Shown: in pieces, positions 10,241-55,459 of the stretch | Layout: every line of letters starts with the position of its first letter | Numbering within the stretch: the first letter of the stretch is position 1 | NCBI GenBank assembly: GCA_965116875.1 | Contig: OZ220733.1 | Span: 4,416,001 to 4,480,000 of the forward strand | Direction of reading: 5' to 3' | Origin: Candidatus Latescibacterota bacterium | Lineage (GTDB): Bacteria; Latescibacterota; UBA2968; GCA-2709665 | Length of the DNA stretch: 64,000 bases | The notes under the pieces: model-generated | Told to the model about the DNA's origin: nothing | Seen by the model: only the letters and a program-made list of their open reading frames with translations | Databases searched by the model: none | Program-made: the position numbers and the translations under genes

Positions 10241-11011
10241 ATGGCAACCGGTGACGAAAGGGGCCCGGAGGAAATCGCCTACGAGGACCGCATCCGGTCC
10301 AGTTCGCTGTCAGAACTGGAAGACATGTCCGCCCAGGTGGACCGTGGGGAATTTCCGTTGCGGGCCAGGAAGCTGCTCGAGGAGATCGGGCGGCGGCGTG
10401 CGGGTCCGGAGCGCCGATCCGAACGGAGGGCCCCGGAAAAGGCGGTGCCCGCGGGCGTGTCCCGGCGTCTCTGGGCAAGCCTGATCGATCTCTTCATTCA
10501 TCTCCTGATTCTGGGCGCGCTATTTCTGGCAGGGTGGTCGGCAATTCAACTTGTCTCGAGCCTCGGAAGCGACGAGCCGCCGCCCGCCGCCGTCTCCGCC
10601 CGCCGGGGTCCATCTCCGCTGCGACAGTTCGCCGCCGGACTGCTTGCCGGCGACCCGGCGGCCTGGGGGAACCGGGAACGGTGGATTCAGGTGGGTCTGG
10701 TTACCCTGGGATTCCTGAATTTCAGGGCGCTATTCATGGTACCGGCCTGGGGGCGAACGGGCAGTACGCCGGGAATGCGTGAGGTCGGCATCAGGCTTGT
10801 CCGGACGACGGGGGAATCCGTCGGTGTGAAGCGGGCGCTGATACGGTTCTGGGGGCAGTGTGTGCTATTCGTGCTGACGCTGGGCGTCAGCACGTTCTGG
10901 ATGATCTGGGACCCGCGAAGACAGGCGTTTCACGACAAACTGACGGACACGTGCATCGTGCGGCAACAACGCACGTGGGAAAAGACCGAAGAAGATCGTA
11001 TCTATGATTAG
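10241..11011 (+). CDS. RDD family membrane protein
   Basis: RRLWASLID, TPGMR...GIRLV and RQAFHDKLTDT motifs. Confidence 0.85.
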   Translation: MATGDERGPEEIAYEDRIRSSSLSELEDMSAQVDRGEFPLRARKLLEEIGRRRAGPERRSERRAPEKAVPAGVSRRLWASLIDLFIHLLILGALFLAGWSAIQLVSSLGSDEPPPAAVSARRGPSPLRQFAAGLLAGDPAAWGNRERWIQVGLVTLGFLNFRALFMVPAWGRTGSTPGMREVGIRLVRTTGESVGVKRALIRFWGQCVLFVLTLGVSTFWMIWDPRRQAFHDKLTDTCIVRQQRTWEKTEEDRIYD

Positions 11012-11204
11012 CCTCAATCCGAAAAAACAGCAACGCGGCGACGCGATAAAACCCTCCGAAATAGGTCGTTATCGACGTAAAGAAAGACGTTTTTTCCCTT
11101 CACGTCCAGTGACCTGGTGTATCCTGGTAATCAGCAGTTGAATCGCCTTTATTTACAATCACATAATCGAATTAACGTCCCCGAAGACTTACGAATCAAG
11201 GTTA
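11009..11204. mobile_element. ~200-bp dispersed repeat/MITE-like element, copy 1
   Basis: Homologous along its length to 16130-16326; ends TAGCCTCAAT...ATCAAGGTTA; core 11099-11153 is 53/55 identical to 16221-16275. Confidence 0.75.
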
Positions 11205-11487
11205 GGCGAATGCGGCATGGCGTTTTCCGGTTGCCTTCCGTCACCTGTTTTGTTATACTTTTCCGGGTTTTTCCTCCATGGTCACCGCCTTTCTGCGGCA
11301 CCTTCCTTCCGCAATGAAATCATTTCCAGGCTCTATCGAATTTCAGGCATCCGTCGAACGGCCCCCGGGGTCGCGGCATCTCCGGAAAGGAATTCGCGTG
11401 TGAGGAGAATCCGCGAAACTTTTGGACGTTTCATGTTGTCTAAGTTTACTGACGGGAGAACGGTGTTCGATTTGCAGGAGTCCGACG

Positions 11488-11925
11488 ATGCGTAAGCGGT
11501 TTCCACAGACCCTATGGTTCCTTGTTGCAGTTGCGGTTGGACTGACCGCCGAACCGGTTCAGGCGAAGTCTTTCTTTACGTCCCGTCGAACGTTCGGCGT
11601 ACTCTTTCTGGGCGGAAGCGCGTTCATGGCCAAGAAGGCCGTTGATTTCCGCCGGGACGCAAACAGGATCTACGACGACTACAAACTTGCTCGAACTTCC
11701 GATGAGGCGGAGCGTCTGTTCGACCGTACGGGCGAATACGATACCAAGAGCAAAATGAGTGTCGGGCTCTCTATCGTTCTGCTTGCCAGCGGGTTGCGTC
11801 TGATTCTCTCAAGCGGCGTGGACGAGGGCTCCGCGAAGATTCGTCAGAAGAAGAAGCTCAAATTGGACATGACGAGCGACGTCAACAAGAGAATGGTCAA
11901 ATTCGCAGTCAAGAGACATTTTTAG
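11488..11925 (+). CDS. secreted/membrane hypothetical protein
   Basis: RBS AGGAG; signal peptide ending VQA; two hydrophobic segments; C-terminal Phe. Confidence 0.75.
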   Translation: MRKRFPQTLWFLVAVAVGLTAEPVQAKSFFTSRRTFGVLFLGGSAFMAKKAVDFRRDANRIYDDYKLARTSDEAERLFDRTGEYDTKSKMSVGLSIVLLASGLRLILSSGVDEGSAKIRQKKKLKLDMTSDVNKRMVKFAVKRHF

Positions 11926-11995
11926 TCGCGGCGGCCGGGCTGGTCTGCCGGCGGGCCGTATATATCAGCAGTTCTTGTGCATGAAGGAGAGGTTT

Positions 11996-14272
11996 ATGGC
12001 GCGTCGGAAATTCAGCCCGGTCCGACTCGGGGTGTGGGGTATGCTGGTCATTGTCCTCGCCGGGGCGGGGCGTTGCGGTCGTGAGCGGGAAAACCCGGTC
12101 GATCCGAATTTTCCCGGAGGCGGGGCGCTCCAACCCCCCGGAAACATACGTGCGCAGGGAGACATCGGCCGAATCCTGCTGACCTGGGACGCCGTAAAAA
12201 TCAACGAACTTGCAGGGTACGGCGTCTGGCGCGCCACGTCGGCCACGGGCGATTATACCCGGCTGCGCGGCGAGTCGAACGATTCGAATGTAACCACCGG
12301 CCGCACGGTCTTTGTCGACTCCACGATGGACGTTTCGGGTTCAAAGGTTTATTTCTACCGGCTCACCACCGTGGATGTGAACGGACAATCCAGCGAAAGG
12401 TCCGCCTTTGTCAGCGCCGAGGTACACGAGGACAAGAGGCCGCCGGCTTCCCCCGTCAATCTTTCCGCAGTCAGAAACGAAAACACCGATCACATAGCGC
12501 TTGTCTGGGACGCGCCGAAAACGGACGCAGACAACCTGGATCTGACCGGACTGGAGGGCTACCGGGTCTTCAGGGCAAAAGACACCGAAGACTCGTACGT
12601 ACAGATTGCTACGGTTCCGGCCACGCGGACGACATTTACGGATACCACGCAGCTGGATCCGGATTTCCGGTATTTCTATCAGGTTTCCGCAATCGACCGG
12701 TTCAACAACGAAAGCGCGCGTTCCCGTTCCGCGTCGGTGAGCGCGCCGGAAACCGGGGTCCTTCCACCGGGCGGCTTGCGGACCGTAAGCAAGGTTGGCA
12801 AGATCGAGTTGCATTGGAATCCGTCGAACGAAGACAACCTCCTGGGATATCTGGTGCTTCGTTCAACGTCCACCCAGGCGCCGTTCGAGCCGGTATCGTC
12901 GAATCGTCCGTATACAACGGCCCAGACCGTTTATATGGATACAGATGTACAGGTCGACGTTGTTTATTTCTACCGGATTCAGACGGTTGTACATGATCCC
13001 GACCGCGGAATTGTCGCGGGCGAAGCGTCGCCCTTTGTCGACGGACAGGCCGAACCGGATGAATCGCCGCCGGCCGCGCCGTCAGACTTGAGCGTGAGTC
13101 TGGACGATGAAGATGCCGGCGTTGTACAACTCAATTGGGCGCCTCCCACAAAGGATGACGGGGGCGACGAACTGACAGGGCTTTCCCACTACCGGATCTT
13201 CCGATCGAAAGAGACGGCCAATTCATTCGTGGAGGTGGCGCAGGTTCCAGGCACGCAGACCCATTTCCGGGACACAACGGTGGAGCCGCTTACCCTTTAT
13301 TATTACACCTTGAACGCGGTCGACTTCGAGAAGAATGGCGGACCGCGTTCCGCGCCCCTTTCCGTCAGCACCCCCGGTCTTGCCACGCCTGAACGGGTTA
13401 CTGCGATTGCCGGCAAGGCGAAAATCTCGCTGGCATGGGCGCCGAACCAGGAGCAGCAGCTGAGCGGGTACGAAGTGTTGCGTTACAGCGACCCGCTCCG
13501 GCCAGACCTGTTTTCTACGTTCATCACCCCGTGGCCGGCCTATGTGGATTCGCCTCTGGTCGGGGGCAAGACCTATGCGTACCGCGTGCGTGCATTGGGC
13601 TCGGGCGGGCTGAACAGCAGATTGTCAGATTTCGTATTGGCAACCGTAATGGACGACGACCTGGCGCCCGCTCCTCCCGAATTCCTGTACGCGAAGTTGT
13701 CGGGGAATACGGACATCGAACTGAGTTGGCGCGCTTCCACGACCGATGAGGACGGATCCGAGCAGACAGGCCTTCATCAGTACAGGATCTACAGGTCGGA
13801 AGCGTCAGGATCAGCCGGGTTCGAGTGGCTGGCGACTGTGGACTCTACCACGCTGAACTACGTGGACAAAGACCTGGAGCCATCCACAACGTACAGTTAC
13901 CAGGTGCGAGCGATCGACGCCAATGGAAACGAGGGCCCGGCATCGAGTACCGTGTCGCTGCAGACCGGACCGGACAGCAGAATTGGCAGGCCGACCAATG
14001 TCGCCGCGGTCGTGCGAAATCTGCCGGAGGAAGGCACCGTCGTGATCGTTACCTGGAGGGCGCCTCCCGGCATCACGCAATTCCGTGTGAATCGTCAGCG
14101 GGTGGGCGCGCGATCCAGCGACGTTTTCGAGACCGTGTCATACCAGCTGAGAGACAACAAGTATATCGACGCCAACGTCGAATCCGGCAGCACGTACATC
14201 TATCACGTGGTTTCCGTTAGAGGAGAGGACATCAGTCGTCCGTCGGATCCGGTCGTTGTTTCGGTGCCGTAG
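11996..14272 (+). CDS. fibronectin type III repeat (about 7 FN3 domains) secreted/lipoprotein
   Basis: Repeated LxW...GYxVxR...YxYxVxAxD...ES motifs; N-terminal signal with Cys followed by RENPVDP. Confidence 0.85.
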   Translation: MARRKFSPVRLGVWGMLVIVLAGAGRCGRERENPVDPNFPGGGALQPPGNIRAQGDIGRILLTWDAVKINELAGYGVWRATSATGDYTRLRGESNDSNVTTGRTVFVDSTMDVSGSKVYFYRLTTVDVNGQSSERSAFVSAEVHEDKRPPASPVNLSAVRNENTDHIALVWDAPKTDADNLDLTGLEGYRVFRAKDTEDSYVQIATVPATRTTFTDTTQLDPDFRYFYQVSAIDRFNNESARSRSASVSAPETGVLPPGGLRTVSKVGKIELHWNPSNEDNLLGYLVLRSTSTQAPFEPVSSNRPYTTAQTVYMDTDVQVDVVYFYRIQTVVHDPDRGIVAGEASPFVDGQAEPDESPPAAPSDLSVSLDDEDAGVVQLNWAPPTKDDGGDELTGLSHYRIFRSKETANSFVEVAQVPGTQTHFRDTTVEPLTLYYYTLNAVDFEKNGGPRSAPLSVSTPGLATPERVTAIAGKAKISLAWAPNQEQQLSGYEVLRYSDPLRPDLFSTFITPWPAYVDSPLVGGKTYAYRVRALGSGGLNSRLSDFVLATVMDDDLAPAPPEFLYAKLSGNTDIELSWRASTTDEDGSEQTGLHQYRIYRSEASGSAGFEWLATVDSTTLNYVDKDLEPSTTYSYQVRAIDANGNEGPASSTVSLQTGPDSRIGRPTNVAAVVRNLPEEGTVVIVTWRAPPGITQFRVNRQRVGARSSDVFETVSYQLRDNKYIDANVESGSTYIYHVVSVRGEDISRPSDPVVVSVP

Positions 14273-14301
14273 GATTCTCTTCGATAAAAAAGGGTATATA
14301 T

Positions 14302-14344
14302 ACAGCAGAGCGCCGTAACGGATTGCGCTCTGCTGTTTCTTGTT
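14302..14344 (+). terminator. rho-independent terminator
   Basis: 12-bp perfect stem ACAGCAGAGCGC/GCGCTCTGCTGT followed by TTCTTGTT, just after the FN3 gene stop. Confidence 0.7.
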
Positions 14345-14566
14345 AGAGGGAAGCGCCGGGGTCGGGGCCCACGTCCGGCTTTCCGTCCTTGAGACGGCTT
14401 CTCCTGGTTGGGCCATTGACGCACGGCGCACGACGGTCTCCGTGTGATCTGTCCTGTATTGCCCGACAGTCGTTCGAGATCGGCCGTGTTCGTGTCATGA
14501 GAACGATGGGTACTGGTTCCTGTAAACACGGTACTTGCGGTTTTTCGTTTGCTGAGCGCGTCTGTC

Positions 14567-14583
14567 CGGCACGCGGACTGCAT
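14567..14583 (+). promoter_or_regulatory. putative sigma54 (-24/-12) promoter
   Basis: CGGCACGCGGACTGCA: GG-N10-GC spacing, close to the TGGCACGNNNNTTGCW consensus, ~55 bp upstream of ATG 14636. Confidence 0.55.
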
Positions 14584-14635
14584 AACCACCAGGAGTTCAT
14601 CGGTGGTGTACGGGTCACGAAACGGAGGATGGTCT

Positions 14636-15958
14636 ATGCAGCGCGTGCTTCTGTTGGATGGCGACAGTCGATTCCGGAGGGAAATGAAGGACCGTTTGAC
14701 GCGGCGCGGCGTGAGCGTCGCGTGTGCGGGGACCGCCCGCGAGGGTTTGAGACTTTACAGGCGCGGCCGTCCCGCATGTGTGTTTGCCGAGGCCGAACTC
14801 CCGGACGGGAGCGGATTTCCGGTACTTGAAGAAGCGCACCGCCATACGCCGGTGGTTATGGTGAGCGAGGGGTTTTCTCCCGACAAGGTTTACACGGCCA
14901 TCTCGGGTGGCGCTTTTGACTGTCTTTCCAAGCCCGTTGATGATCCCACCCTGGACGGATTGCTGTACCGGTTGCGCAACGAGCGGGAACCGCCGCCGAC
15001 AGAGACGGGCCCGGCCGGACCCGTCCCGGACGCCGGCGGCGAAATGGTTGTGGGACGTTCCCAGAAAATGGTTGAGGCGTTAAAGACGGTTGCCGCGGTC
15101 GCCGGTACTTCGGCCACGGTACTGGTCTGCGGCGAAAGCGGAACCGGAAAGGAGTTGATGGCCAGGGAAATCCATCGTGCGTCGCGAAGGCCCGGGGCTT
15201 TCGTGGCCGTCAATTGTGTGGCGGTTATGGAAACCCTCACGGAGAGTGAACTGTTCGGGCACGAGCGAGGCGCCTTCACGGGTGCGGCGGGGCGGCGTGC
15301 GGGGTATTTCGAACAGGCGAACCACGGCACGCTTTTTCTGGATGAAATCGGCGACGCGCTTCCGGGTTTTCAGGCCAAGTTGCTTCGCGTGCTGGACCAG
15401 GTTGAATTCCGTCGCGTCGGCGGCCAGGAATCGATCCGCCCGGATGTGCGGGTTGTTGCGGCCACGAATGCCGATCTGGAAAATCAGGTGGCGAACGGTA
15501 CGTTCAGGGCGGATCTCTATTACCGGCTGAGCGAGGTGACCGTCCATTTGCCGCCGCTGCGTGACCGCCTTGCGGACATTCCCTTGCTTGTGCGGCGCAC
15601 GCTTGGCGAGATCCGGCACCGTACCGGCCGGAGCCTGGGTGGCGTTTCTCAGGAGGCCATGCACAGGCTGATGGACCATCCGTGGCCGGGAAACGTCAGA
15701 GAACTGCAGAATGTTCTTGTGAGGGCGGCGCTTCATTGCCGGGGATGTACGATCCAGCGTAATCACCTGAAGGATCTGATCTCGGGCGAGTCACCCGACA
15801 ATGACGAATCGCTGTCCCTGTCGGACGTGGAACGCCGGCACATTGAGCAGGTTCTGAATGCTACAGGCTGGAACCGGGGCATGGCTTGCGAGATCCTGGG
15901 CGTGTCGCGTCCCACGCTCCGGAGGAAGATCAGGGACTATGGACTTCACGGAGGGTGA
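14636..15958 (+). CDS. sigma54-dependent Fis-family transcriptional activator (NtrC-like) with atypical receiver domain
   Basis: GESGTGKE, GAFTGA, LFLDEIG and WPGNVREL motifs, C-terminal HTH; N-terminal REC-like domain. Confidence 0.92.
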   Translation: MQRVLLLDGDSRFRREMKDRLTRRGVSVACAGTAREGLRLYRRGRPACVFAEAELPDGSGFPVLEEAHRHTPVVMVSEGFSPDKVYTAISGGAFDCLSKPVDDPTLDGLLYRLRNEREPPPTETGPAGPVPDAGGEMVVGRSQKMVEALKTVAAVAGTSATVLVCGESGTGKELMAREIHRASRRPGAFVAVNCVAVMETLTESELFGHERGAFTGAAGRRAGYFEQANHGTLFLDEIGDALPGFQAKLLRVLDQVEFRRVGGQESIRPDVRVVAATNADLENQVANGTFRADLYYRLSEVTVHLPPLRDRLADIPLLVRRTLGEIRHRTGRSLGGVSQEAMHRLMDHPWPGNVRELQNVLVRAALHCRGCTIQRNHLKDLISGESPDNDESLSLSDVERRHIEQVLNATGWNRGMACEILGVSRPTLRRKIRDYGLHGG

Positions 15959-16018
15959 GGGCGTCCTTGTGCGGGAATGCACGTTTGGCGACGCCCCGGA
16001 CCCAACCCGCGCCGGCGC

Positions 16019-16046
16019 TTGACTTCCTGGGAAGTTGTTTTAAAAT
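16019..16046 (+). promoter_or_regulatory. putative sigma70 promoter
   Basis: TTGACT-N16-TAAAAT upstream of repeat copy 2 and thrC. Confidence 0.5.
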
Positions 16047-16129
16047 TACCGGTGAGCTCCCGAGCGCGAGCGAAAAAGTGGCGGTTATGAGGCGCGAGGG
16101 GCGCACAGCGCCGACCTGTTTGCCGTCAT

Positions 16130-16326
16130 TAACCTCAATACTGCAAAAGCCGCAACGCGGCACCGCGACGAAACCCTTCAAAACGGACTGAAATGGTCGT
16201 CAGGAAGGACATTTTATCCGTTCACGTCCAGTGTCCTGGTGTATCCTGTTAATCAGCAGTTGAATCGCCTTTATTAACTCGCACATATTCGAATGAACAT
16301 CCCCGAAAAATGATGAATCAAGGTTA
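16130..16326. mobile_element. ~200-bp dispersed repeat/MITE-like element, copy 2
   Basis: Ends TAACCTCAAT...ATCAAGGTTA (8/10 inverted repeat); homologous to copies 1 and 3; ends 2 bp before the thrC RBS. Confidence 0.75.
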
Positions 16327-16338
16327 ACAGGAGGATGG

Positions 16339-17529
16339 ATGGGATACCTGGTGGACCTCATATGCACCCGCTGCGGCCGAAGCCACGACAAACGGAGACT
16401 TTGGAATCTGAGCGCCTGCTGCGAGGCGCCGCTCTTCGCCCGGTACGATCTGGAGAAAGCGTCGAATGCCCTCAGTAAAGAGAATCTACCGGAACGGGAG
16501 CCGACGATGTGGCGGTACGAGGAAGTGCTGCCCGTCGAACGGGCTGCACACCGGATCAGCCTGGGTGAGGGATTTACGCCGTTGCTGAAGGCGGGCGCAC
16601 TGGGGGCGCGGGTCGGCGTCCCGGACCTCTTCGTCAAGGATGAGGGTGTCAATCCCACAGGATCGTTCAAGGCGCGTGGGTTGTCGGCTGCGATATCCAG
16701 GGCCGTGGAATTGGGAGCGGATGCCGTGGCCATCCCGTCGGCCGGGAATGCCGGCGGGGCAACGGCGGCGTACGCGGCGAGGGCCGGGATGGAGGCGTAC
16801 ATTTTCATGCCAACCGATGCTCCCGAGGCAAACATGGTGGAGTGCCAGCGTCTGGGTGCGCGCCTGACGCTCGTGGACGGTCTGATTACGGATTGCGGGA
16901 AGATGGTGGCCGATCGAAGAGTCGCTGAGGGCTGGTTCGACGTCTCGACACTCAAGGAGCCGTACCGGGTGGAAGGAAAGAAGACGATGGGATACGAACT
17001 CGCCGAACAGTTTAACTGGGAGTTGCCGGACGTCGTACTCTACCCGACCGGCGGCGGTACCGGCCTGATCGGAATGTGGAAAGCGTTCGACGAGATGGAA
17101 GAAATGGGGTGGATCGGCTCCGCGAGACCCCGAATGGTGGCTGTACAAGCGGAGGGCTGCGCGCCTGTTGTCAGGGCGTATGAAACGGGCGCCGAATCGG
17201 CCGAGTTCTGGGAAAACGCCGAAACCGTTGCATCGGGACTCCGGGTGCCTGGCGCCGTGGGTGATTTTCTTATGCTTGGAGCCATCAGGGAAAGCCGCGG
17301 CACGGCTATTGCCGTTACCGACGGCGCCTTGCTGGCCTGCGTCGACGAAATGGCCTCGTTGACTGGCATTTTCCCGGCGCCTGAAGGCGCGGCGACGCTT
17401 GCCGGGCTGAAAGAACTCGTGGGAGACGGGCGGGTCTCTTCCGGGGAGCGGGTGGTGCTGTTCAATACCGGGACGGGGTTGAAATATATCGAGGCCATGG
17501 GCGCGGCGGACCACACGGTCGGCCGATGA
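16339..17529 (+). CDS. thrC: threonine synthase (PLP fold type II)
   Basis: ISLGEGFTPL, NPTGSFKARG, SAGNAG, EGKKTMGYE and PTGGGTG motifs; N-terminal Cys/Zn-ribbon. Confidence 0.88.
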   Translation: MGYLVDLICTRCGRSHDKRRLWNLSACCEAPLFARYDLEKASNALSKENLPEREPTMWRYEEVLPVERAAHRISLGEGFTPLLKAGALGARVGVPDLFVKDEGVNPTGSFKARGLSAAISRAVELGADAVAIPSAGNAGGATAAYAARAGMEAYIFMPTDAPEANMVECQRLGARLTLVDGLITDCGKMVADRRVAEGWFDVSTLKEPYRVEGKKTMGYELAEQFNWELPDVVLYPTGGGTGLIGMWKAFDEMEEMGWIGSARPRMVAVQAEGCAPVVRAYETGAESAEFWENAETVASGLRVPGAVGDFLMLGAIRESRGTAIAVTDGALLACVDEMASLTGIFPAPEGAATLAGLKELVGDGRVSSGERVVLFNTGTGLKYIEAMGAADHTVGR

Positions 17530-17665
17530 TCCGTTTGACCCGGGGGCATGCGTTCCGTGCCGGATTTTCACCGGGGCGGACGCCGGGAGTTGCCGTGGGA
17601 AAACGAAATGATCCACCGGCACGGCGGAGGGTCGTCACCGGTGCACGAAAGGAGGTACCCGGCCA

Positions 17666-18055
17666 ATGAAGAGGCGAGAGATCGGGAGATTCCAGAGTTT
17701 CATTCTTGAGGAAGAGGATACAGTCGTGGTGATGGGTAACCTGAACGCCCATGCGGACTTCCTCACGCGGTGCGGGTTCAGCCGTCACCCCGATACGGGC
17801 GAGTACGTCGGCACTGGCGCCAATCTCTACGCAATGGCTCCCGGTGATTTCTACGACCGGTTCAGCGCGCGTACCGGCGCGGATCCGGAACTGACCGCGC
17901 AGGCTTACGACGGGGAGGACTTCTACCAGATCGACGGACTGCCGCTGGCCGCGGTGGATGCAGAGGGCGATCCCTGCATCGAGGGAATCACCGCCGTAGA
18001 CATCGAGACCCGGGTCTACATCGAACAGGGGATAGCGAACTTCAGGGTCGGTTAG
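17666..18055 (+). CDS. acidic hypothetical protein (129 aa)
   Basis: Strong RBS AAGGAGGT; convergent 4-bp overlap with hpnE; no recognisable motif. Confidence 0.75.
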   Translation: MKRREIGRFQSFILEEEDTVVVMGNLNAHADFLTRCGFSRHPDTGEYVGTGANLYAMAPGDFYDRFSARTGADPELTAQAYDGEDFYQIDGLPLAAVDAEGDPCIEGITAVDIETRVYIEQGIANFRVG

Positions 18056-19392: not shown

Positions 19393-20249
19393 GGCGGCTT
19401 CTCCCGTATTCCAACCCGGTTACGAAGGCAGAACCCAAGCGCGATGCCCAGCTTTTTCAGGTTGTTTACACGAATCGGATGATGGTACACGTTGTAATTA
19501 ACGGCTTCGATGCGGCTGAGAAGACGACTGTAGATACAACCCATGATTTCGGCCGCAAACAGGCTCTGGCGATCCTCTCTTGGCAGGCATTGCGCCGCTT
19601 TCCTGTAGTAGCTCCGCGCCCGATTGCACTGGAATCGCATCAGCTTCCGGAACCTGGATGTGGCGATTCCGTTGAAGAGGTCTTCTTCGGTGTAGTTGAA
19701 ACGCTGCAGGTCTTCCAGCGGGAGATAGATACGGTCTCTCTTTGCATCGGTCTTGATGTCCCGGAGGATGTTCGTAAGTTGCAGTGCAATCCCCAGATTG
19801 ACGGCGTAATCCCGGGATGCCCGCCTGGTGTAGCCGAAGATCTCAATGCATATCAGGCCGACAATGGAGGCGACGCGGTAACAGTACTCGTACAGATCGC
19901 CGAAGGTCTGGTAGCGGTTTTTCACCAGGTCCATCTCCACGCCGTCTATCAGCTTGAGAAAGTGTTCTTTCGGTATCTTGAAGCGCTTGAGCGCTTTGTG
20001 CAGGTTTACGGTAATCGGGTGCTTTGGCCTGCCGTCGAAGCAGGCGTGGGTTTCGGCGCGCCACTTCGCGAGATTTCGGGTGGCGGCTTCCGGCGATGCC
20101 GCGTCGTCGACCAGGTCGTCGGTGTGCCGGCTGAAGGCGTACGCGGCGAAAATGGCGTCACGCTTGGACCGCGGCAGAAAAACGAACGCGTAGTAAAAGT
20201 TGCTGCGCGCGTTTCGTACGAGCGCCGCTGTGTAGGATCTGATGTTCAT
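19389..20249 (-). CDS. hpnD: presqualene diphosphate synthase
   Basis: SNFYYAF, DDLVD, YCYRVAS, LQLTNILRD and RIYLP motifs. Confidence 0.9.
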   Translation of the reverse strand: MNIRSYTAALVRNARSNFYYAFVFLPRSKRDAIFAAYAFSRHTDDLVDDAASPEAATRNLAKWRAETHACFDGRPKHPITVNLHKALKRFKIPKEHFLKLIDGVEMDLVKNRYQTFGDLYEYCYRVASIVGLICIEIFGYTRRASRDYAVNLGIALQLTNILRDIKTDAKRDRIYLPLEDLQRFNYTEEDLFNGIATSRFRKLMRFQCNRARSYYRKAAQCLPREDRQSLFAAEIMGCIYSRLLSRIEAVNYNVYHHPIRVNNLKKLGIALGFCLRNRVGIREKPP

Positions 20250-21175: not shown

Positions 21176-21275
21176 ACGTAAAAGATAATTGATAAGTATC
21201 GAATTCGCCAGAACCAGGCGCCCGGGGGAAGGGTACCGGATTCAATTTCAAATTTCGGCAAGAGGCGACATACGG

Positions 21276-45583: not shown

Positions 45584-45904
45584 GCGTTTCCGTCAGCGGC
45601 GGGGCCTTCAGAAATATCGGCAGCGGCTGATACAATTATACGCCGTTCGGTTCGGGCACGTTTTGCAGTGCGACTTTCAACCTGAACGGATTGCAGGGCA
45701 CCCGTGAAGGTGATAATTTTCGGATTACCGCCGTTCCTTGATTCCGGAGCAAAGCCGAATGTCGACACTGAACGAAGGACCCGAATCCTGTGGGCTCGGT
45801 TTTGCCGGAATCGGCGCCAACCGCTCGCTATTGCTCTTATCAACCCATACGCACCCCAAAGTGGCTTTCTGCTCAACAAACAACCATACTCGATTATTTA
45901 AGGA

Positions 45905-46675: not shown

Positions 46676-46777
46676 AGAGAACCTCGCTGGAGATGGAGCG
46701 TTGAATGGCATGCGAAACTGACGCATGAAATACGAATTCGATTTTCGGCTGTCAAACAGAAAAGGGGGGAGGTAACG

Positions 46778-47542: not shown

Positions 47543-47675
47543 CGGAATCCGGAGGGTGTTCTCGCAGGGGCGCGCGGTCGGGTCCTGTCTCTTCCACAGC
47601 CGGAATGCAGGAAGGCTTGTCCGGTGAACGTGTGCGGATGTCGCGGGGTGTGCGGACGCAGTACAGGGAAGGGGT

Positions 47676-48434
47676 TTACTTGAGGGAAAAGCCGATGGGC
47701 ATCACCATCCAGACCTTGCGTTTTTCTCCTTCGTGCTTTCCGGGGCGAAAACGGAACTGGCGGGCGGCCGCGATGGCATTGCTTCGAAAGATCTCGGGTC
47801 CGCTGACGACTTCCACCTTCTCCACGCGTCCACGCTTGTCCACAAGCACACGGACCTTTACTGTGCCTTCCAGCTTCTGTTTGTGGGCCTGACGGGGATA
47901 CTCGGGCGCCACGATACGGATCGGGTGGGGTTTGTATTCGATGTCGAACTCGTCCATCGGGGCGTCGGACGGAGGGCCCGTGGCGATCGGCCCCCTCAGG
48001 CGCAGATCCAGCGGGAGCGCGTCAAGGTCCAGTTCGGTTGTTTCGATCGTGACGTCTTCGGGTATTTCCTCCCCTTCCACCTCGATCGGCACGGCCGGCC
48101 GCGGCGGCGGCGGCGGACGTTTGGCCTGGGATGTTTCGGGAATCTGTGCCCACTGAACGACGTCGACCTGGGGTTCGTTCAGCACCACGGTGGGGATGTG
48201 TTCGGGATAGATGAGAACGGTGAACAGCATGAAGAGAAAGGACGCACCCAGCGACTTCAGAAAGCGGGTTCCGTAGTCACGCTTGAGGTCCACGTCCGGA
48301 TTCTTGGAGCGCACCGAAACACGAATACCCGTTGGATGATCCTTCAGGAGACGCAGGAACCTCTCCTGGCGCTCACGATATCGCGCCAGTTGTGCCAGAA
48401 GCGAATGACTGAAGCGATGGTGAACGATATTCAT
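47676..48434 (-). CDS. tonB: TonB family energy transducer
   Basis: TM helix, PPPPPRP linker, PEYPRQA...EGTVKVRVLVDKRGRV...FRFRPGK C-terminal domain. Confidence 0.85.
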   Translation of the reverse strand: MNIVHHRFSHSLLAQLARYRERQERFLRLLKDHPTGIRVSVRSKNPDVDLKRDYGTRFLKSLGASFLFMLFTVLIYPEHIPTVVLNEPQVDVVQWAQIPETSQAKRPPPPPRPAVPIEVEGEEIPEDVTIETTELDLDALPLDLRLRGPIATGPPSDAPMDEFDIEYKPHPIRIVAPEYPRQAHKQKLEGTVKVRVLVDKRGRVEKVEVVSGPEIFRSNAIAAARQFRFRPGKHEGEKRKVWMVMPIGFSLK

Positions 48435-48802
48435 TGTTCAGATGACTGAGGTTATGTTCAGATTGAAAATGGGGTGGCGCCGGGGGCGATTCGTTCCGGA
48501 TGACTGGTATCACCCCGGAGAATTGGTCGCGGACGCCGACGCCGGTGGGGATTGGCCGGATTCGGCTCTTTTCAACTTTATACAAATGGAACGGGAAAAG
48601 GTTCCGGGCCGACGGCTTCCCTCAGCCCGGCCCGGCAGATGCTGAGACGGCATGATCTTTACAGGTGACCGATCGACCCGCTGCGATCGCGTAGATGTAC
48701 CTGTTGGCCATAAACCACTAAATTAGTCCAGACATACGAAAAGTCAAGCCCAAACTTGAAAACGGGCCGCGAATCCAAAGCTGCCCGGCCTGTTGCGGCG
48801 TT

Positions 48803-49138
48803 ATGAACGATCAAATTGGCATTCCCGTACGCATCGACGTGAAGCGGGACGACGGAGAGATGGAAATCGAGTGGCGGGGAGGCCGCGTCGACAGTCTGCC
48901 GCTTTCCGTGTTGCGGCGATGGTGTCCTTGCGCGTTGTGTTCGGACCGACGCGAACAACAGGCCAGGGGCAGGGGATTGCACATGCTGACACCCGGGGAG
49001 CGCGACGCAACGGCCGACGTTGCGGATGTGGTACCGGTGGGGCGGTACGCCATACAGATCAGGTGGGGAGACGGTCACGATACGGGAATCTATACGTACG
49101 ACTCCCTCAGAAGAATGGGTGAAGAGCAGACGGGGTGA
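48803..49138 (+). CDS. DUF971 / GBBH-N-like small Cys metal-binding protein
   Basis: LRRWCPCALC and VGRYAIQIRWGDGHDTGIYTYDSL motifs. Confidence 0.88.
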   Translation: MNDQIGIPVRIDVKRDDGEMEIEWRGGRVDSLPLSVLRRWCPCALCSDRREQQARGRGLHMLTPGERDATADVADVVPVGRYAIQIRWGDGHDTGIYTYDSLRRMGEEQTG

Positions 49139-49256
49139 ACGGCGCCGGCCGGATGCCGCCTGTTGCATCTGTATTTGACAGTGCCCGCATTGTGAAGTCA
49201 TATTTGGGGCATGGGAGACAAGGAACGCGGAGAATCCTCATTATCGGGAGAATGCC

Positions 49257-50180
49257 ATGGCTCGGTCCGTTGAAAGTGTTCCGGTTGCAGCTTCATCAAA
49301 GCGTCAAACGAAGCAGTTGCCTCAAAGGGTGTTGGGAAAAACCGGCGTGCGTGTGCCAATCCTTGGCTACGGATCGGCTCCCGGCGGAATCGGCATGGAT
49401 GACGATGAAGCCATTTCGCTCTGCCACGTGGCGATCGACCATGGCGTGACGTTCATCGATACTGCGCCAGGATACGGCCGTGCGCACCTTCAGTTGGGGC
49501 AGGTCATGGCCGGCCGCAGGGACGAGGTTTTCCTGGTTACCAAGACGCCGGCAGACGACGCGGACTCGGCGCTTTCGATGTTGGAGAAAGGCCTGAGAGA
49601 TCTGCAGACCGATCACGTCGACCTGGTCTATGTACATTCGATGGGTAATCGGGACGTAGACAGGGTGCTGGCTTCCAACGGCGCGCTCGAGGGCCTCAGG
49701 GAAGCGCGCCGCAGAGGTTGGACACGGTTTATCGGAGTGACGGCGCACAACGCGCCCTGGCGAACAGCCCGGGTATTGAAGGAAGCTGAAATCGACGTGG
49801 TAATGCTTGCCATGAACATCGCGGACCGATATACGTACAACTTCGAAAACGAAGTACTCCCGATTGCCTGTGAACAGGACGTTGGAGTTGCGGCAATGAA
49901 GGTCTATGGAGGGGCGTTGGACATGAAATACGACAATCCGGCGCCTTCGGCCCTGGCCGCGCACGGGCCGCACGATCATGAGGCGGCGCTGCGGTACGCG
50001 CTGGGGCTGCCCGGGGTCGGTACGGCGGTTGTGGGGGTGTTTTCGGAGGCCGAACTGTTGCAGAACGTGGAATTGGCACGGCGGATAACGCCGCTGGATG
50101 GAGCGGACAGCCTCGCTGCGGAGCGCATCGGACGGCAGGTGGCCGCAGACTGGGGACCGCATTACGGGGCGGTGGAATAG
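49257..50180 (+). CDS. aldo/keto reductase family protein
   Basis: RVLGKTG, IDTAPGYG, FLVTK, DHVDLVYVH and AAMKVYGG motifs. Confidence 0.9.
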   Translation: MARSVESVPVAASSKRQTKQLPQRVLGKTGVRVPILGYGSAPGGIGMDDDEAISLCHVAIDHGVTFIDTAPGYGRAHLQLGQVMAGRRDEVFLVTKTPADDADSALSMLEKGLRDLQTDHVDLVYVHSMGNRDVDRVLASNGALEGLREARRRGWTRFIGVTAHNAPWRTARVLKEAEIDVVMLAMNIADRYTYNFENEVLPIACEQDVGVAAMKVYGGALDMKYDNPAPSALAAHGPHDHEAALRYALGLPGVGTAVVGVFSEAELLQNVELARRITPLDGADSLAAERIGRQVAADWGPHYGAVE

Positions 50181-50196
50181 AAGGCGATCAGAGAAC

Positions 50197-51333
50197 ATGA
50201 TATCCAACTGCTATTCACGCGCGCGTTTCGGTATACCGGCGGTCTGCGCCCGGAGGGTTCATCGCGTCGTATGGCGCGTCATCGCTGGAGCAACTCTGTG
50301 CGCGTGCGGGGTTGACGAGGGGGGGTCGCCGCTGGGGAGTATCGCGCCCAGGTCCTTTGGCGCGGTCGGCCCCATGGTTGAACCCAGGCGGGACCACACG
50401 GCCACACGGCTGTCCGACGGTACCGTGTTGGTGGCCGGAGGGATACACGTGGTTACCGCGGGCGTCGAAGAGCCGCTGACGAGCGCAGAGGTCTTCGATC
50501 CGGTCACGGGGAGGTTCCGGCGAACCGGCGACCTGCCGGAAGGGCGCAGCGGGCACGTGGCCGCCCTGTTGAGTACGGGCAAGGTACTGATTGCCGGAGG
50601 AGGCCGGCAGGCACTGGTCCTGTACGATCCTGAATCCGGTACGTTCGCGGGCAGTTCGGCAGGCAGCAGAATCCAGCGCCCGAGTTCGGCGACGGCATTG
50701 CGGGACGGGAGGGTGCTGCTGCTGGGTAACCTGACCTTCCTGGCGGAGATTTACGACCCGGAATCAGACAGCATTGTTAAGACCCTCAACGTGGGCACAA
50801 GGCGCATTCAACAGACGGCGACGCTGCTCAACAGCGGAGACGTGCTCATCGCGGGCGGCGCCCGCAGTCTTGCCGAGTTGTTCATCGCCGCGAATGATTC
50901 CCTGGTTGCGTGGAGCGCCGGCCTGCAGGTCGTCAGATTCGGGCATACGGCAACGTTGCTGGAAGACGGACGGGTGCTGCTGGCAGGCGGCAGCGCGGAG
51001 TTCGGGGCAAGCGTGTTCAGCCCCGTGAGCAGCACGGAGACTTTCGATCCCAACCTCCCGTCATTCCGGGATCCGGGAAGCATGCAAACGCCGAGATTTG
51101 GACACTCGGCCACCCGGCTGCGTGACGGAAACGTGCTCATCGTCGGCGGTGCGGCGGCCGACGCGGAGATCTACGATCCCGATACGCGGGTCTTTCAGTT
51201 TGTCGGCGGTGACGCGGGCAGGATCAGAAGCGGCGCCACCGCCACCCTGCTGAACGACGGGCGGGTGCTCCTGGCCGGGGGTGTGGACGAGGAGTTCCTG
51301 TATCTCGAGCGTGCGCTGGTGTTCAATCCCTGA
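50197..51333 (+). CDS. Kelch-repeat beta-propeller (lipo)protein
   Basis: About 7 repeats of R..HTATLL.DG.VL.AGG...AE.YDP; LCAC lipobox candidate. Confidence 0.85.
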   Translation: MISNCYSRARFGIPAVCARRVHRVVWRVIAGATLCACGVDEGGSPLGSIAPRSFGAVGPMVEPRRDHTATRLSDGTVLVAGGIHVVTAGVEEPLTSAEVFDPVTGRFRRTGDLPEGRSGHVAALLSTGKVLIAGGGRQALVLYDPESGTFAGSSAGSRIQRPSSATALRDGRVLLLGNLTFLAEIYDPESDSIVKTLNVGTRRIQQTATLLNSGDVLIAGGARSLAELFIAANDSLVAWSAGLQVVRFGHTATLLEDGRVLLAGGSAEFGASVFSPVSSTETFDPNLPSFRDPGSMQTPRFGHSATRLRDGNVLIVGGAAADAEIYDPDTRVFQFVGGDAGRIRSGATATLLNDGRVLLAGGVDEEFLYLERALVFNP

Positions 51334-51371
51334 CCATACGGATATTGGAGGATACAGCACGACAGTACGCT

Positions 51372-53369
51372 ATGAGTCAGCCCGAGTCCCTCAATCACGT
51401 CCCGCTGTCGGAAGATTCCACGGCCTCCGCCGAGGAAGGATTGCGCGGAACCGTAATCGCCCTTTCGGTCGCAGTGCTGGTCTTCGCCTGTGTCGCCGCG
51501 ACGTTTCTGGAGTTCAGATCTCGCTCCGCACATATGGCCATGGCGAATCTGCCTCTGGCGGTGTTGCTTCCCTTTGTCGCGTGGCTATTTGCCAATACCC
51601 TGCTGAAGCGGTTTGTACCCTGGCTGTCCCTGACGTCGGCGGAGTTGAGGATGGCCCTGGGGATGCTCTGGGTGGGCGGTTCATTTGCCGGATACAACTG
51701 GATTACACAGTGGGTTGGCGCAATGGCGGCCCCCAGGTATTACGCCTCCCCGGAAAACAGATGGCGGGAGTTGATTTTCGACTATCTGCCCTGGTGGATG
51801 TTTCCGTCGGATTTTCCCGGCGTCACTGAAGGGTTTTTCCTGGGTTTCGAGAAGGGCGCCGGGGTGCCTTGGGGGGCATGGCTGGGACCTGTTTTCTGGG
51901 CGATGTCCGCCGGCGCCGCGATGACGGCGATCGGGGTGGGGCTGACGGCGGTGTTCCAGAAGCAGTGGGTCCGGCACGAACGGCTTACCTATCCACTGGC
52001 ACAGGTGCCGGTCGATCTGACGGAAGGCTTCGACCGGAAGCGTGGCTGGCCTCCGTTTGCGCGTCAGTGGTTGTTCTGGACAGGTTTTGCTATCTCAGCC
52101 GTTCCCCTCCTGTGGAATCTGATCGAGTACTGGAGTCCCGGATTTCCCCGGCTGGCGATTTTTGACGCGTACTATGGTCCAACCGGGCCCAGAGGCGCAG
52201 AGCTGTCCCGCTATCTTCAGCCGTTCTCCTACCGGATGTTGCCCACCGTCCTTGGCTTTACGTTCCTGTGCGATCTGGATATCCTGTTCAGCATATGGAC
52301 GTTGTGGCTGTCCGGACAGCTGGGCCTGTATGGCATGTCCCGGGTTGGATTCTCGGTGGGCCTCGCGGGGCAGGAAGCCAAGCCTTCGACCATTCTGGGC
52401 CTGTTCACGCACGGCGTCAGCATGGGCATGGTGGTCTGGACCCTCTGGGCCGCAAGGGGTCACCTGAAGCGTGTTTTTCGGCAGGTGGCGAGGCCGCGAA
52501 AACACGAAGAGCCGGAAACCGCGATTCTGTCTCCTCGCCTGGCCATGATTGCCATTCTGGCCGGCGGCATCTATATGGTTTTCTGGTTGAGCAGGGCGGG
52601 TTACAGCGTCACGGTGGGTTTGGCCTGGCTATTGCTGTTCTGGGCGAGTATCCTTGTTGTGATGAAATTCCTGGCCGCGAGCGGGTTCGCCTATCTGTTT
52701 CCCAGCTTTCCAACTTCGATCCTGAATATGACCGTGGGCGCGAACCGGATGAACGAATCCACGCTTGTGGGGCTGCGCCTCGTGAACTGGAGGCTGCTGG
52801 CAGGATGGCGGCTGCCGGCGGCGCTCCCTCACGTGGAACGTCTGGCCGGACGGCCGGGCCGTACGGGATGGGTCGTGGCTGTCAGCCTTGTCGTTGGCAT
52901 GCTGGCGGCGATCCTCTATACGGTCTCCATCTGTTACCAGGAGGGGGGAAGCACGTTTCGCACCTGGTCTCTGGTTGGCGCTCCGAGAGGGATGTACGAG
53001 GGTATCGCAAAAGCGGTTGCGGACACCGACCCCGAGGTTACCGATCCGGGAAAAATAAGCGTGTGGCTGCTCGGCGGCCTGACCGCGGGCGCCATACAGC
53101 TGATGCAGAGCCGGTTCTCCTGGTGGCCGTTTCATCCCCTGGGCGTCATGCTGATGTCGAGCGGGTACGTCCGGCTGTACGTGCTGGATATATTCCTGGT
53201 GTGGCTGGCCAAGTTGATGGTCCTCCGTTTTGGCGGTATTTCCCTGTACCGGCGCGTAAAACCGGTCTGTTACGGGTTGATTGTCGGGTACGTATTCGCT
53301 GTCGGGTGTTCCTTCCTGGTGGACCTGATCTGGTTTCCCGAGGGCGGCCACTATATTCACGGGTACTAG
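51372..53369 (+). CDS. DUF6785/DUF6784-type polytopic membrane protein (putative transporter), paralog 3
   Basis: YYASPENRW, KQWVRHERLTYPL, LDILFSIW and WWPFHPLG motifs. Confidence 0.75.
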   Translation: MSQPESLNHVPLSEDSTASAEEGLRGTVIALSVAVLVFACVAATFLEFRSRSAHMAMANLPLAVLLPFVAWLFANTLLKRFVPWLSLTSAELRMALGMLWVGGSFAGYNWITQWVGAMAAPRYYASPENRWRELIFDYLPWWMFPSDFPGVTEGFFLGFEKGAGVPWGAWLGPVFWAMSAGAAMTAIGVGLTAVFQKQWVRHERLTYPLAQVPVDLTEGFDRKRGWPPFARQWLFWTGFAISAVPLLWNLIEYWSPGFPRLAIFDAYYGPTGPRGAELSRYLQPFSYRMLPTVLGFTFLCDLDILFSIWTLWLSGQLGLYGMSRVGFSVGLAGQEAKPSTILGLFTHGVSMGMVVWTLWAARGHLKRVFRQVARPRKHEEPETAILSPRLAMIAILAGGIYMVFWLSRAGYSVTVGLAWLLLFWASILVVMKFLAASGFAYLFPSFPTSILNMTVGANRMNESTLVGLRLVNWRLLAGWRLPAALPHVERLAGRPGRTGWVVAVSLVVGMLAAILYTVSICYQEGGSTFRTWSLVGAPRGMYEGIAKAVADTDPEVTDPGKISVWLLGGLTAGAIQLMQSRFSWWPFHPLGVMLMSSGYVRLYVLDIFLVWLAKLMVLRFGGISLYRRVKPVCYGLIVGYVFAVGCSFLVDLIWFPEGGHYIHGY

Positions 53370-54143
53370 ATGGCAGATCGCGCGATGGATAGTCTGGCCA
53401 TTGACGTCTGCGGCGTGAGCAAGGTGTTCGAGAGTGACACCGGGCGGGTGGAGGCCTTGAGGGACGTGAAACTTCAGGTTCCCCAGGGCGTTTTCGTAAG
53501 CGCAGTCGGACCGTCCGGTTGTGGAAAGACCAGCCTGATGCGTATCGTGGGCGACCTGGAGGTTCCCACGTCCGGGACCGTTCGTGTGAACGGGAAGTTG
53601 CCCGCGGAAGCCAGGAAGGCCCGGGAAATCGGGGTGGTCTTTCAGAGTCCCGGGTTGCTGGGCTGGCGGACGGTGGAAGAGAACGTCGGGCTGCCTGGAG
53701 AGATATTCAACGATTCCAACGTGGCGGCCAGGGCCCGTGAAATGGTTCGAACGGTAGGCCTGGAGGGCTTCGAATCCGCCTATCCGAGGCAGCTGTCGGG
53801 GGGAATGCAGTCGCGGGTGGCCATCGCCAGGGCGCTGACGTACCGCCCCGACATATTGCTGATGGACGAACCGTTCGGCGCGCTGGACGAAATGACGCGA
53901 GAGCGCATGCAGCTGGAGTTGCTGCGCATCTGGAGGGGTACAAGACCGGCCGTGCTGTTTATTACACACAGCATCCCTGAGGCTGTTTTGCTATCGGATC
54001 GGGTGGTGGTGATGTCGCCACGTCCCGGCAGGCTGATTGGAGACGTGGCGGTGGATTTTCCAAGGCCCAGAAACGTGGGTTTGCTTTCTCATCCGCGTTT
54101 CGTCGAGATGGTGGCGCACCTGAGAGCCCTGATGGCGGGATAG
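53370..54143 (+). CDS. NitT/TauT-family ABC transporter ATP-binding protein
   Basis: GPSGCGKT, LSGGM, LLMDEPFGALD and FITHS motifs. Confidence 0.93.
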   Translation: MADRAMDSLAIDVCGVSKVFESDTGRVEALRDVKLQVPQGVFVSAVGPSGCGKTSLMRIVGDLEVPTSGTVRVNGKLPAEARKAREIGVVFQSPGLLGWRTVEENVGLPGEIFNDSNVAARAREMVRTVGLEGFESAYPRQLSGGMQSRVAIARALTYRPDILLMDEPFGALDEMTRERMQLELLRIWRGTRPAVLFITHSIPEAVLLSDRVVVMSPRPGRLIGDVAVDFPRPRNVGLLSHPRFVEMVAHLRALMAG

Positions 54144-54157
54144 CGGGAGTTCCGAAC

Positions 54158-54201
54158 CTTTATCAACGGACTGTTAGGGGCGCCTGGCATGAGGGGCGCC
54201 C
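54158..54201. repeat. orphan MITE end plus REP-like palindrome
   Basis: CTTTATCAACGGACTG (54158-54173) is identical to 1322-1337; followed by TTAG and GGGCGCC...GGCGCCC. Confidence 0.55.
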
Positions 54202-54232
54202 ACCCGCCGCCAGGGAGTACGAACCGTCGTGT

Positions 54233-55204
54233 TCATGGAGCCGGGGGAAGCATATCGGAAACGAAGAGCCCGGAAACGTCGATCTTGCGGTCGACCAGAC
54301 CCAGATCGAACAGAATATCCCGGGTGTGTGTCCACCGTTCGGCGGTCTGTGCGCCCAGCCCCAGGCGTTCCACGTCCGGGCTCATCAGGATGGGGATGAG
54401 CTTTTCGAAATTCGCCCGGTTGAATTCGGCGTCGCTTTCCGGGCGTTCGGCCATGTATGCCGCCACCGCGTCTTCCGGGTTATCAACGGCGTAGCGCCAG
54501 CCCTTCATGCTGGCGTGGACGAATTTTCGCGCAACGTCCGGGTTCTTCTTCAGGTAGTCGGCATTGACAATGATATTGGTGCTGTAGAGGTCGATGCCGT
54601 ATCGGGCAAAGGAGATTCGGGTTACCGCCCGACCCCGGAGTTCGACGGTTACCGGCTGATCTTCGGTATAACCCAGCATGGCGTCGACCTTGCCGGCAAG
54701 GAGCGGTGCGGGACTGGATTCCGTCATTCCCATTACCCGCACGCTGTCTTCATCGATACCCACCTTCTTCAGAAAAGCCTGAAATTCCCGGTGCTTCGTT
54801 CCTCCGATATTGACGCCGACCCGTTTGCCGATCAGATCCTCCGGTTTCCGGATGTTATTCTCTTCCAGCGCATACACCACAACCGGCGAATGCTGGTTGA
54901 TCACGGCGAGAGAGACCACGGGAATGTCCCTTGTGCGCGCGATCAGGGTGGCTGATCCGCTGGAAACCCCAAGCTGATACTTGCCGCTGCCGACGAGTCG
55001 CGCCGTTGTGGGCGCACCGGTACCTTCGAGAATCTCAACCGATATCCCCTCGGCTTCGTAGAATCCCTTTGCCTTCGCCGCGAAGAAACCGGCGTGTTCC
55101 ATCTGCGCTTTCCAGTCCAGAAGCAACTGGATGCGTTGTAGCGTCTCGGGTGGTTTGCCGCAGGCAACCAGAATTGCAAGGAACAGCCAGACAAGGCGGT
55201 TCAT
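54233..55204 (-). CDS. NMT1/THI5-like ABC substrate-binding lipoprotein
   Basis: Lipobox ILVAC; LDWKAQMEHAGFFAAKAKGFY; PEDLIGKRVG; FVHASMKGW. Confidence 0.88.
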   Translation of the reverse strand: MNRLVWLFLAILVACGKPPETLQRIQLLLDWKAQMEHAGFFAAKAKGFYEAEGISVEILEGTGAPTTARLVGSGKYQLGVSSGSATLIARTRDIPVVSLAVINQHSPVVVYALEENNIRKPEDLIGKRVGVNIGGTKHREFQAFLKKVGIDEDSVRVMGMTESSPAPLLAGKVDAMLGYTEDQPVTVELRGRAVTRISFARYGIDLYSTNIIVNADYLKKNPDVARKFVHASMKGWRYAVDNPEDAVAAYMAERPESDAEFNRANFEKLIPILMSPDVERLGLGAQTAERWTHTRDILFDLGLVDRKIDVSGLFVSDMLPPAP

Positions 55205-55239
55205 CGGATTCCCCCTGTTCACGATTCCGGATTGATGTT

Positions 55240-55459
55240 TAACCTCAGTTTGAAAAAAGACAACAGTCGAATTGGCCACAAAAAGCACAAAAGGCACAGG
55301 AGAGACCGGTGCCAATTGGGGTATCGAGGTCGTTCATAAGGATTGTATTTTCGATCACGTCCAGCGACTTGGTGTATCCTGGCAATCCGCAGTTTAATCG
55401 CCTTTGTCAACTTGCATATACTCGGTTTAACGTCCACGAAAACATACGAATAATAGTTA
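55240..55459. mobile_element. ~220-bp dispersed repeat/MITE-like element, copy 3 (diverged)
   Basis: Starts TAACCTCAGT and ends ATAATAGTTA; core 55354-55408 is 47/55 identical to copy 1; contains extra CCACAAAAAGCACAAAAGGCACA motif. Confidence 0.7.

Follow-up and report, generated by a model that had tools for sequence, protein, structure and literature searches.

Three similar non-coding stretches of about 200 bp lie within a 64,000-nucleotide piece of the genome of a Candidatus Latescibacterota bacterium (GenBank assembly GCA_965116875.1, contig OZ220733.1, positions 4,416,001 to 4,480,000 of the forward strand; this whole piece is called the window, and window positions are counted from its first letter). 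They raise the question of what kind of element they are, what moves it, and why a 55-nt core in its middle appears better preserved than its ends. A preliminary description took them for a non-autonomous miniature inverted-repeat transposable element (MITE) with IS982-like ends and suspected the core of being a structured RNA or a protein-binding module. The analysis reported here makes it very probable (roughly 0.9) that the three are copies of a non-coding MITE of ∼190 bp and ∼45% G+C that is moved in trans by the transposase of a 1553-bp insertion sequence (IS) of the IS1380 family. The MITE inserts into TTAA/TTAG-like (YTAR) tetranucleotides and duplicates those 4 bp; it encodes no transposase, and the DDE transposase of the partner IS is its most likely source of mobility.

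Three copies of a short non-coding element

Copy 1 has a 190-bp body (11012–11201, type A) that begins with CCTCAATCCG and ends with CGAATCAAGG. It stands between TTAG target-site duplications at 11008–11011 and 11202–11205, and the TAG of the left one is the stop codon of the upstream open reading frame (ORF) 10241–11011. Copy 2 (body 16133–16323, 191 bp) belongs to a second subfamily of type A; it is flanked by TTAA at 16129–16132 and 16324–16327, and 15 nt separate its right end from the ATG of ORF 16339–17529. Copy 3 (body 55243–55456, 214 bp) is of type B: its left arm is different and longer, and its match to the family profile runs from position ∼53 through the right end (4471312–4471459 in genome coordinates). 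The right end of copy 3 is degenerate, with AATAG in place of CAAGG, and its duplications, TTAA at 55239–55242 and TTAT at 55457–55460, match at three of the four bases; read on the minus strand, the TTA of the latter is the TAA stop of ORF 55457–56248.

The three copies lie on the plus strand at the positions first reported for them and align over their whole length. The core (11099–11153 in copy 1), which starts a right-hand module of ∼110 bp reaching to 11201, is identical at 53 of 55 positions between copies 1 and 2 and at 47 of 55 between copies 1 and 3, exactly as first described. The left arm is indeed more diverged (64/89 and 63/113 for the same pairs), and the right arm shows identities of 37/48 and 34/48. 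The bodies are AT-richer than their surroundings, with a G+C content of 0.44–0.47 against 0.60 for the window. At 190–214 bp they have no coding capacity, and the sole ORF of at least 60 aa that touches copy 1 (11117–11317) runs out of the element.

A large family with a 4-bp target-site duplication

The genome searched, referred to as G000, is a single contig (C1) of 5,453,092 bases with 59.6% G+C. Copy 1 found at least 42 matches in it, 40 of them at an E-value of 1e-41 or lower and down to 1e-98 (40 of 123 candidates were scored), and a separate BLAST search placed the element at 155 sites. With an nhmmer profile built from 59 full-length copies and a threshold of E≤1e-3, the 5.45-Mb genome yielded 134 hits, 60 of them full length, with 75 on the plus and 59 on the minus strand. 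The genome-wide E-values and the number of profile hits mean that the resemblance among the copies is not due to chance. The window copies thus belong to a large genome-wide family, as had been predicted from the three alone.

When full copies are aligned, similarity ends sharply, and in nearly all of them the break falls on the same base at either side. The body starts with CCTCAATTC(G/C) and finishes with (C/G)GAATCAAGG, forming an imperfect inverted repeat CCTYRATTC(G). The terminal inverted repeat noted at the outset holds, CCTCAATTCG matching the reverse complement of the right end CCTTGATTCG at 8 of 10 positions, and the ends are kept across the 59 copies. The element is sharply bounded, and its limits are better given as a body plus a 4-bp duplication.

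The description of the element as TA-flanked does not stand, since both the flank statistics of the 59 copies and a natural junction indicate a duplication of 4 bp (TTAA or TTAG). In 37 of the 59 full copies the 4-mers on either side of the body are the same, whereas 5000 shuffles gave 17.9 such copies on average and never more than 29. At the fourth base, A or G, the two sides agree in 51 copies, against 29.4 expected, and even rare variants occur in matched pairs (TCAG/TCAG, TCAA/TCAA, TTGA/TTGA and TTTA/TTTA). Independent evidence comes from a sequencing run of a related population (X3), in which a contig links window position 11007 directly to 11202. The 194 letters skipped equal the 190-bp body plus one 4-bp repeat, and four letters at the joint fit either side. 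This was the one empty-site joint in the contigs of four runs, which otherwise showed only repeat-inflated depth.

TTAA and TTAG are the preferred targets. Of 66 left duplications, 28 are TTAA and 20 TTAG; on the right, the corresponding numbers are 53 and 24 of 114. Because TAA and TAG are stop codons, a duplication can at the same time end an adjacent reading frame, as in copies 1 and 3. A called stop is included in 8/66 left and 18/114 right duplications. This enrichment is modest (12–16% of duplications, compared with 9.3% of non-coding TTAR/YTAA sites overall) and is not claimed as a property of the element. Nested insertions were found at genome positions 3632226–3632620 and 10714–10962, where a copy sits within an internal TTAA or TTTA of another copy and the tetranucleotide is duplicated.

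According to rough codon-usage gene calls (4070 genes covering 85% of the genome), 119 of the 120 hits extending to the right end fall between called genes. Their spacers are tandem, divergent and convergent in 85, 25 and 10 cases, a ratio similar to the 1134, 370 and 141 counted among all spacers longer than 150 bp, so that the element occupies spacer types in approximately natural proportions. Two further MITE copies, G000:C1:16647–16847 and 19549–19747, have ∼40 nt of near-identical left flank; this pair reflects a larger duplicated segment and not independent insertions.

Empty sites and distribution in the genus

A 7-kb query spanning copies 1 and 2 identified the orthologous region in all 14 other species of the genus. 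At the copy 1 locus, six of them (G002, G004, G009, G011, G012 and G013) lack the element and carry a single [T/C]TAG. The flanks also abut, by coordinates, in G005 and G008; G006 has a contig break at the site, ∼200 bp of different sequence occupies it in G010 and G014, and G003 and G007 were left out of this sequence comparison. At the copy 2 site, matches to the right flank start at query positions 6125–6131, the right edge of the element, in nearly all species, and the gaps in the targets measure 60–130 bp, which is too short for the element. The sole match running into the element is in G012. By the coordinates, copy 2 thus appears to be absent from its site in most congeners. Taken together with the profile hits and the matched 4-bp duplications, the empty sites bear out the view of a non-autonomous MITE with inverted ends.

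The MITE is present in 13 of the 14 other species, with 10–196 first-look candidates per genome; the exception is G011 (95% complete), where it was not detected. A search of 26 genomes of other genera, seven from the same family and 19 from a sister family, also gave no copy. In a scan with an 18-nt degenerate form of the core, the multi-hit records among the matches listed were labelled Candidatus Latescibacterota, with some Gemmatimonadota, and the other rows listed were mostly chance matches.

An IS1380-family partner with the same ends

An autonomous partner with the same ends lies outside the window, a 1553-bp IS at G000:C1:242801–244353. It was located by local alignment as the place where both element ends occur, inverted, beside one of 14 DDE_Tnp_1 matches. 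The IS has one copy in the genome, with CTAA on both flanks. Its ends read CCTCAATGCGAAAATAA and, on the opposite strand, CCTTAATTCCGCAAAA; aligned with the left ends of the two main MITE subfamilies, they agree at 15/17 and 15/16 positions. The single ORF encodes 459 aa and matches the profile NF033539 'IS1380 family transposase' with 211.5 bits (cut-off 180) over positions 1–417 of 419, as well as PF13701 DDE_Tnp_1_4 with 105.3 bits.

Members of the IS1380 family measure ∼1.5–2 kb, have one ORF and ends beginning with CC, and produce a 4–5 bp duplication. The partner IS has all of these features, with its 1553 bp, single 459-aa ORF, CC...GG ends and 4-bp duplication, and is accordingly placed in this family; its transposase has only 22–25% identity with ISSsu5, ISEcp1 and other named members carried on plasmids. 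Homologues with 81–93% amino-acid identity are present in 8 of the 14 congeners (E≤1e-20), with seven intact copies in G007 and five in G012. The flanking 4-mers are identical in all 14 copies examined from seven species (TTAG, TTAA, CTAA, ACTA and TTCA), and variants in G001 and G005 start with CCTTGATTC, the form of the MITE right end. From the common end sequence and the common 4-bp duplication, we infer that the transposase of this IS most likely moves the MITE.

Several observations weigh against this reading. The partner IS of G000 occupies the same site with the same flanks in G002 and G009, at ∼94% DNA identity and with the ORF still intact; being common to these species, it is an old, vertically inherited insertion that need not be active. 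Similarity between the IS and the MITE ends after the terminal 16–17 nt, so the MITE interior, judging by this alignment, is not a deletion derivative of the present partner. The right end of the MITE, CCTTGATTCGTAAG, fits the partner of G000 less well than the left end does. No homologue of the partner transposase was found at E≤1e-20 in the MITE-rich genomes G003, G008, G010 and G014 (76–132 candidates each), where any movement of the MITE would need another enzyme or has ended. Within G000, moreover, the 14 DDE_Tnp_1 genes comprise 12 of the IS1380 family, in five types that all have CC-type ends and YTAR-type duplications, and one each of IS1182 and IS5; the 11 further IS1380 genes, of four other types, might cross-mobilise the MITE. 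The best pair of G000 copies among the matches listed is 97% identical and none is identical, so that no very recent burst is shown, and the roughness of the gene calls also has to be counted here.

An IS982 parentage, first proposed from the AC-type termini, is not supported, the partner with matching ends and duplication being of the IS1380 family. None of the seven distinct transposases behind the 14 DDE_Tnp_1 matches reaches the IS982 cut-off, and the best score, 53.5 bits against a cut-off of 130, belongs to the IS5-family protein. The core and the beginning of the partner transposase gene have 12 consecutive nucleotides in common, CACGTACAGTGA; this borderline match was discarded as chance (2–3 of 300 shuffles score as high, with 12 comparisons made).

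Another IS1380-family element in the genome encodes a 467-aa transposase. Its six copies, at G000:C1 511188–512591, 1940984–1942387, 2759149–2760552, 4238301–4239704, 4281578–4282981 and 5378550–5379953, have flanking regions identical over the stretch shown. The copy at 4281578–4282981 adjoins the target duplication of a MITE copy.

A right-hand module joined to several left arms

The element is a mosaic. About 60 further profile hits consist of its right part only, from position ∼53 or ∼90 to the right end. A longer form, type C (310–400 bp), has the same left end, followed by a G+A-rich internal inverted repeat and then by the core through to the right end. Type C copies such as G000:C1 1096383–1096785 and 2756938–2757329 contain this long G+A-rich/C+T-rich inverted repeat in variable length, with units like GGGGAGACGGTAGAGG; it is a potential long hairpin that expands and contracts from copy to copy.

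This architecture accounts for the prominence of the core. Its apparent conservation stems from its place at the inner edge of the ∼110-bp right-hand module, which is common to at least three types (A, B and C) with differing left arms. Among subfamily consensuses, 30 of 80 left-arm columns differ, compared with 10 of 70 in the core and 9 of 50 in the right arm, so that the contrast between core and left arm noticed at first lies between subfamilies and not within them. In mean identity to the consensus of 59 copies, the core has 0.86–0.95 and the very ends 0.85–0.90, with 0.72–0.89 for the left arm and 0.82–0.91 for the right arm. The notion of a core more conserved than the termini is thus only partly true.

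Nor is selection on the core in inserted copies supported by private differences, those between a copy and its own subfamily consensus. The sample comprised 36 copies in clusters of 20, 12 and 4, with 348 differences over 7163 sites; 23 copies in singleton or pair clusters were excluded. The core has 0.042 private differences per site and the left arm 0.039, with 0.062 in the right arm and 0.056–0.071 at the ends (duplication columns included). The similar rates indicate that inserted copies decay evenly, and on this measure the conservation of the core does not point to a function for the host.

One possible explanation of the pattern, which we put forward tentatively and consider less probable than its opposite, is that core and right arm form a cis-acting site needed for transposition, which would bind the transposase or a host DNA-bending protein and would owe its conservation to master copies and not to the host. 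The IS1380 relative piggyBac requires asymmetric subterminal repeats. The module is the very part that types A, B and C have in common, its subfamily differences are far fewer than those of the left arm, and an 8-bp palindrome, ATTCGAAT, located ∼35 nt from the right end, resembles the terminal ATTCG motif. On the other hand, the partner IS shows no likeness to the module past its terminal 16–17 nt, and common ancestry of the module followed by swapping of left arms would produce the same pattern without any requirement in cis.

For the mosaic left arms themselves, an analogy is offered by IS1380 members, which misread surrogate ends and thereby move adjacent DNA (TMos), as described in the sections consulted of PMC3281130 and PMC9330008. 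By the same route, the MITE-moving transposase could pair a true right end with a surrogate left end. The surrogate-end use reported in those sections would fit the mosaic left arms.

Does the right-hand module drive the neighbouring gene?

The module could also attract attention as a mobile promoter, an outward sigma-70-type signal in the element or its right part that drives or rewires the gene to the right, as ISEcp1 and ISPme1 do; the evidence makes this rather improbable. A promoter-like TTGAAT-18-CATAAT at 11138–11167 faces the right end of copy 1, a consensus match only, at 9 of 12 positions, and copy 2 has TTGAAT-18-CATATT at the equivalent place. The relevant part of PMC9330008 gives the ISEcp1 promoter as TTGAAA-18N-TACAAT, which the copy 1 site recalls, and describes strong outward promoters in ISEcp1 and ISPme1. 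In tandem spacers, 51 copies face the downstream gene and 34 face away, and many sense copies, copy 2 among them, end 2–30 nt before a start codon.

Each of these points has its counterweight. The orientation bias is weak (binomial p ∼0.08 by our own estimate) and depends on the rough gene calls, and copy 3 points towards the 3' end of an opposite-strand gene. The −35 hexamer differs among subfamilies (TTGAAT, TTTAAT, TTAAAT and TCTAAT), and within the core private substitutions are most frequent, at 0.078 per site, in profile positions 131–140, which include it. Four promoter-like sites were counted in the region against 1.7 ± 1.3 in shuffles, and a single match is unremarkable. If the promoter were nevertheless real, dozens of genes just past MITE right ends would be transcribed from a mobile promoter. 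A broader picture, in which the genus holds a piggyBac-like IS1380 clade with its MITEs and the right-hand module serves as a cis transposition site with an ISEcp1-like outward promoter, is likewise a long shot.

The core is very unlikely to be a structured RNA

That the core is a structured RNA carried by the element, either a small RNA or a cis-regulatory leader, was suspected early; this is now largely refuted and very unlikely. The preliminary description noted a CCAG/CTGG hairpin that changes only in the loop or to a G-U-compatible pair. Across 41 copies from 10 species, the inner three pairs are indeed kept in 39–41 copies, with two G-U variants, but the outer C-G pair is broken in 16. 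A 3-bp hairpin in the left arm also shows a swap from U-A to A-U between subfamilies (19 U-A, 13 A-U). In the second inverted pair, GTTNAATCG/CGNNTNAAC, however, two of the nine base pairs fail to form in 26 and 37 of the 41 copies. Counted over four helices, the two of the preliminary description and two additional ones, 80.2% of cells pair, equal to shuffles, and the covariation score is 0.033 compared with 0.038 in shuffles, 467 of 500 of which score at least as high.

Searches and folding point the same way. Rfam gave no match, either for the window at gathering thresholds or for copies 1 and 3 at E≤5. RNAalifold gave −4.28 kcal/mol and 11 pairs for the 41 copies, and −0.57 (plus strand) and 0.0 kcal/mol (minus strand) for the 59. 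The fold of copy 1 has z-scores of +0.59 on the plus and −1.37 on the minus strand, no better than shuffles, and hence no unusual folding energy. After insertion the core decays at the rate of the left arm, and the copies point either way with respect to the genes beside them.

A MITE of IS630/Tc1-mariner type that duplicates TA is hardly credible and can be regarded as refuted: the empty site of copy 1 could be read as gat-TA-ggc and the genome has one IS630-family (DDE_3) element, yet the base after TA co-varies across the two sides (the 51 of 59 copies given above), variants within the supposed TA are matched on both sides (TCAG/TCAG, TTGA/TTGA), the X3 joint has four shared letters and not two, and the ends of the sole DDE_3 element, starting CACTAGTGG, are quite different and unrelated. 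That element, at G000:C1:4554443–4555704 (locus L170:770–2031), has inverted ends of 35 nt. Its transposase is split into two overlapping frames (locus ORFs 867–1160 and 1087–1998), which suggests a programmed or accidental frameshift.

A second repeat beside copy 2

An unrelated repeat of ∼67 nt lies just upstream of copy 2, at about 16031–16097 of the window, and BLAST finds it ∼100 times in the genome. Over this repeat, contig depth reaches hundreds or thousands in all four runs, with many loose contig ends at 16031 and 16085. A promoter-like TTGACT-16-TAAAAT at 16019–16046 runs into its start, and no Rfam match was obtained for it at gathering thresholds.

Relation to known elements and significance

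Bacterial MITEs moved in trans by a resident IS include Correia/NEMIS of Neisseria, RUP of Streptococcus pneumoniae and Nezha of cyanobacteria. Like these, the element described here is short, non-coding, A+T-richer than the genome and intergenic, with terminal inverted repeats and a duplication of fixed length; it has tens to hundreds of copies, differs in presence and absence between genomes, and has a partner IS with the same ends. It differs from them in that its partner is of the IS1380 family, in its short (∼10 nt), imperfect inverted repeat and in its mosaic build, with one right module and several left arms.

The partner resembles ISEcp1, IS1247, ISPme1 and ISSsu5 of the IS1380 family in its single DDE transposase, its full-length NF033539 match and its CC ends. 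Unlike those elements, what the window holds is a non-autonomous derivative only. The duplication is 4 bp at YTAR, unlike that of IS1247, which is listed in Table 2 of PMC3281130 as 1672 bp long with a 5-bp direct repeat. No IS1380-derived MITE was described in the full-text literature searched, outside which subscription journals and ISfinder mostly lie, nor was a repeat of this kind in Latescibacterota found in that literature, with subscription journals again mostly beyond it. The element is ordinary selfish DNA, and both MITEs and the IS1380 family are already-known kinds.

For the biology of these bacteria, the family offers a complete example of a MITE with an IS1380-family partner in an uncultured, sponge-associated Latescibacterota genus, including ends, target, empty sites and nested insertions. 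There are also practical consequences for annotation. The ∼130 copies occupy spacers, often within 30 nt of start codons or over stop codons, and should be masked before promoters, small RNAs or terminators are called in these genomes. They also break short-read assemblies, as illustrated by the contig end of G006 at the copy 1 site.

The transposon piggyBac, whose nearest relatives among prokaryotes are IS1380 transposases, has ends that begin with CC and finish with GG. The element is similar to eukaryotic piggyBac and its MITEs in its TTAA-type 4-bp target duplication and CC...GG ends; it differs in being bacterial and in its looser target (TTAA, TTAG, CTAA and others). In the piggyBac trees presented in PMC10813416, as far as the part consulted covers them, IS1380 transposases form the prokaryotic outgroup. 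The TTAA/TTAG target and CC...GG ends of the Latescibacterota elements echo those of piggyBac, and the MITE/IS pair could aid comparative work on target choice.

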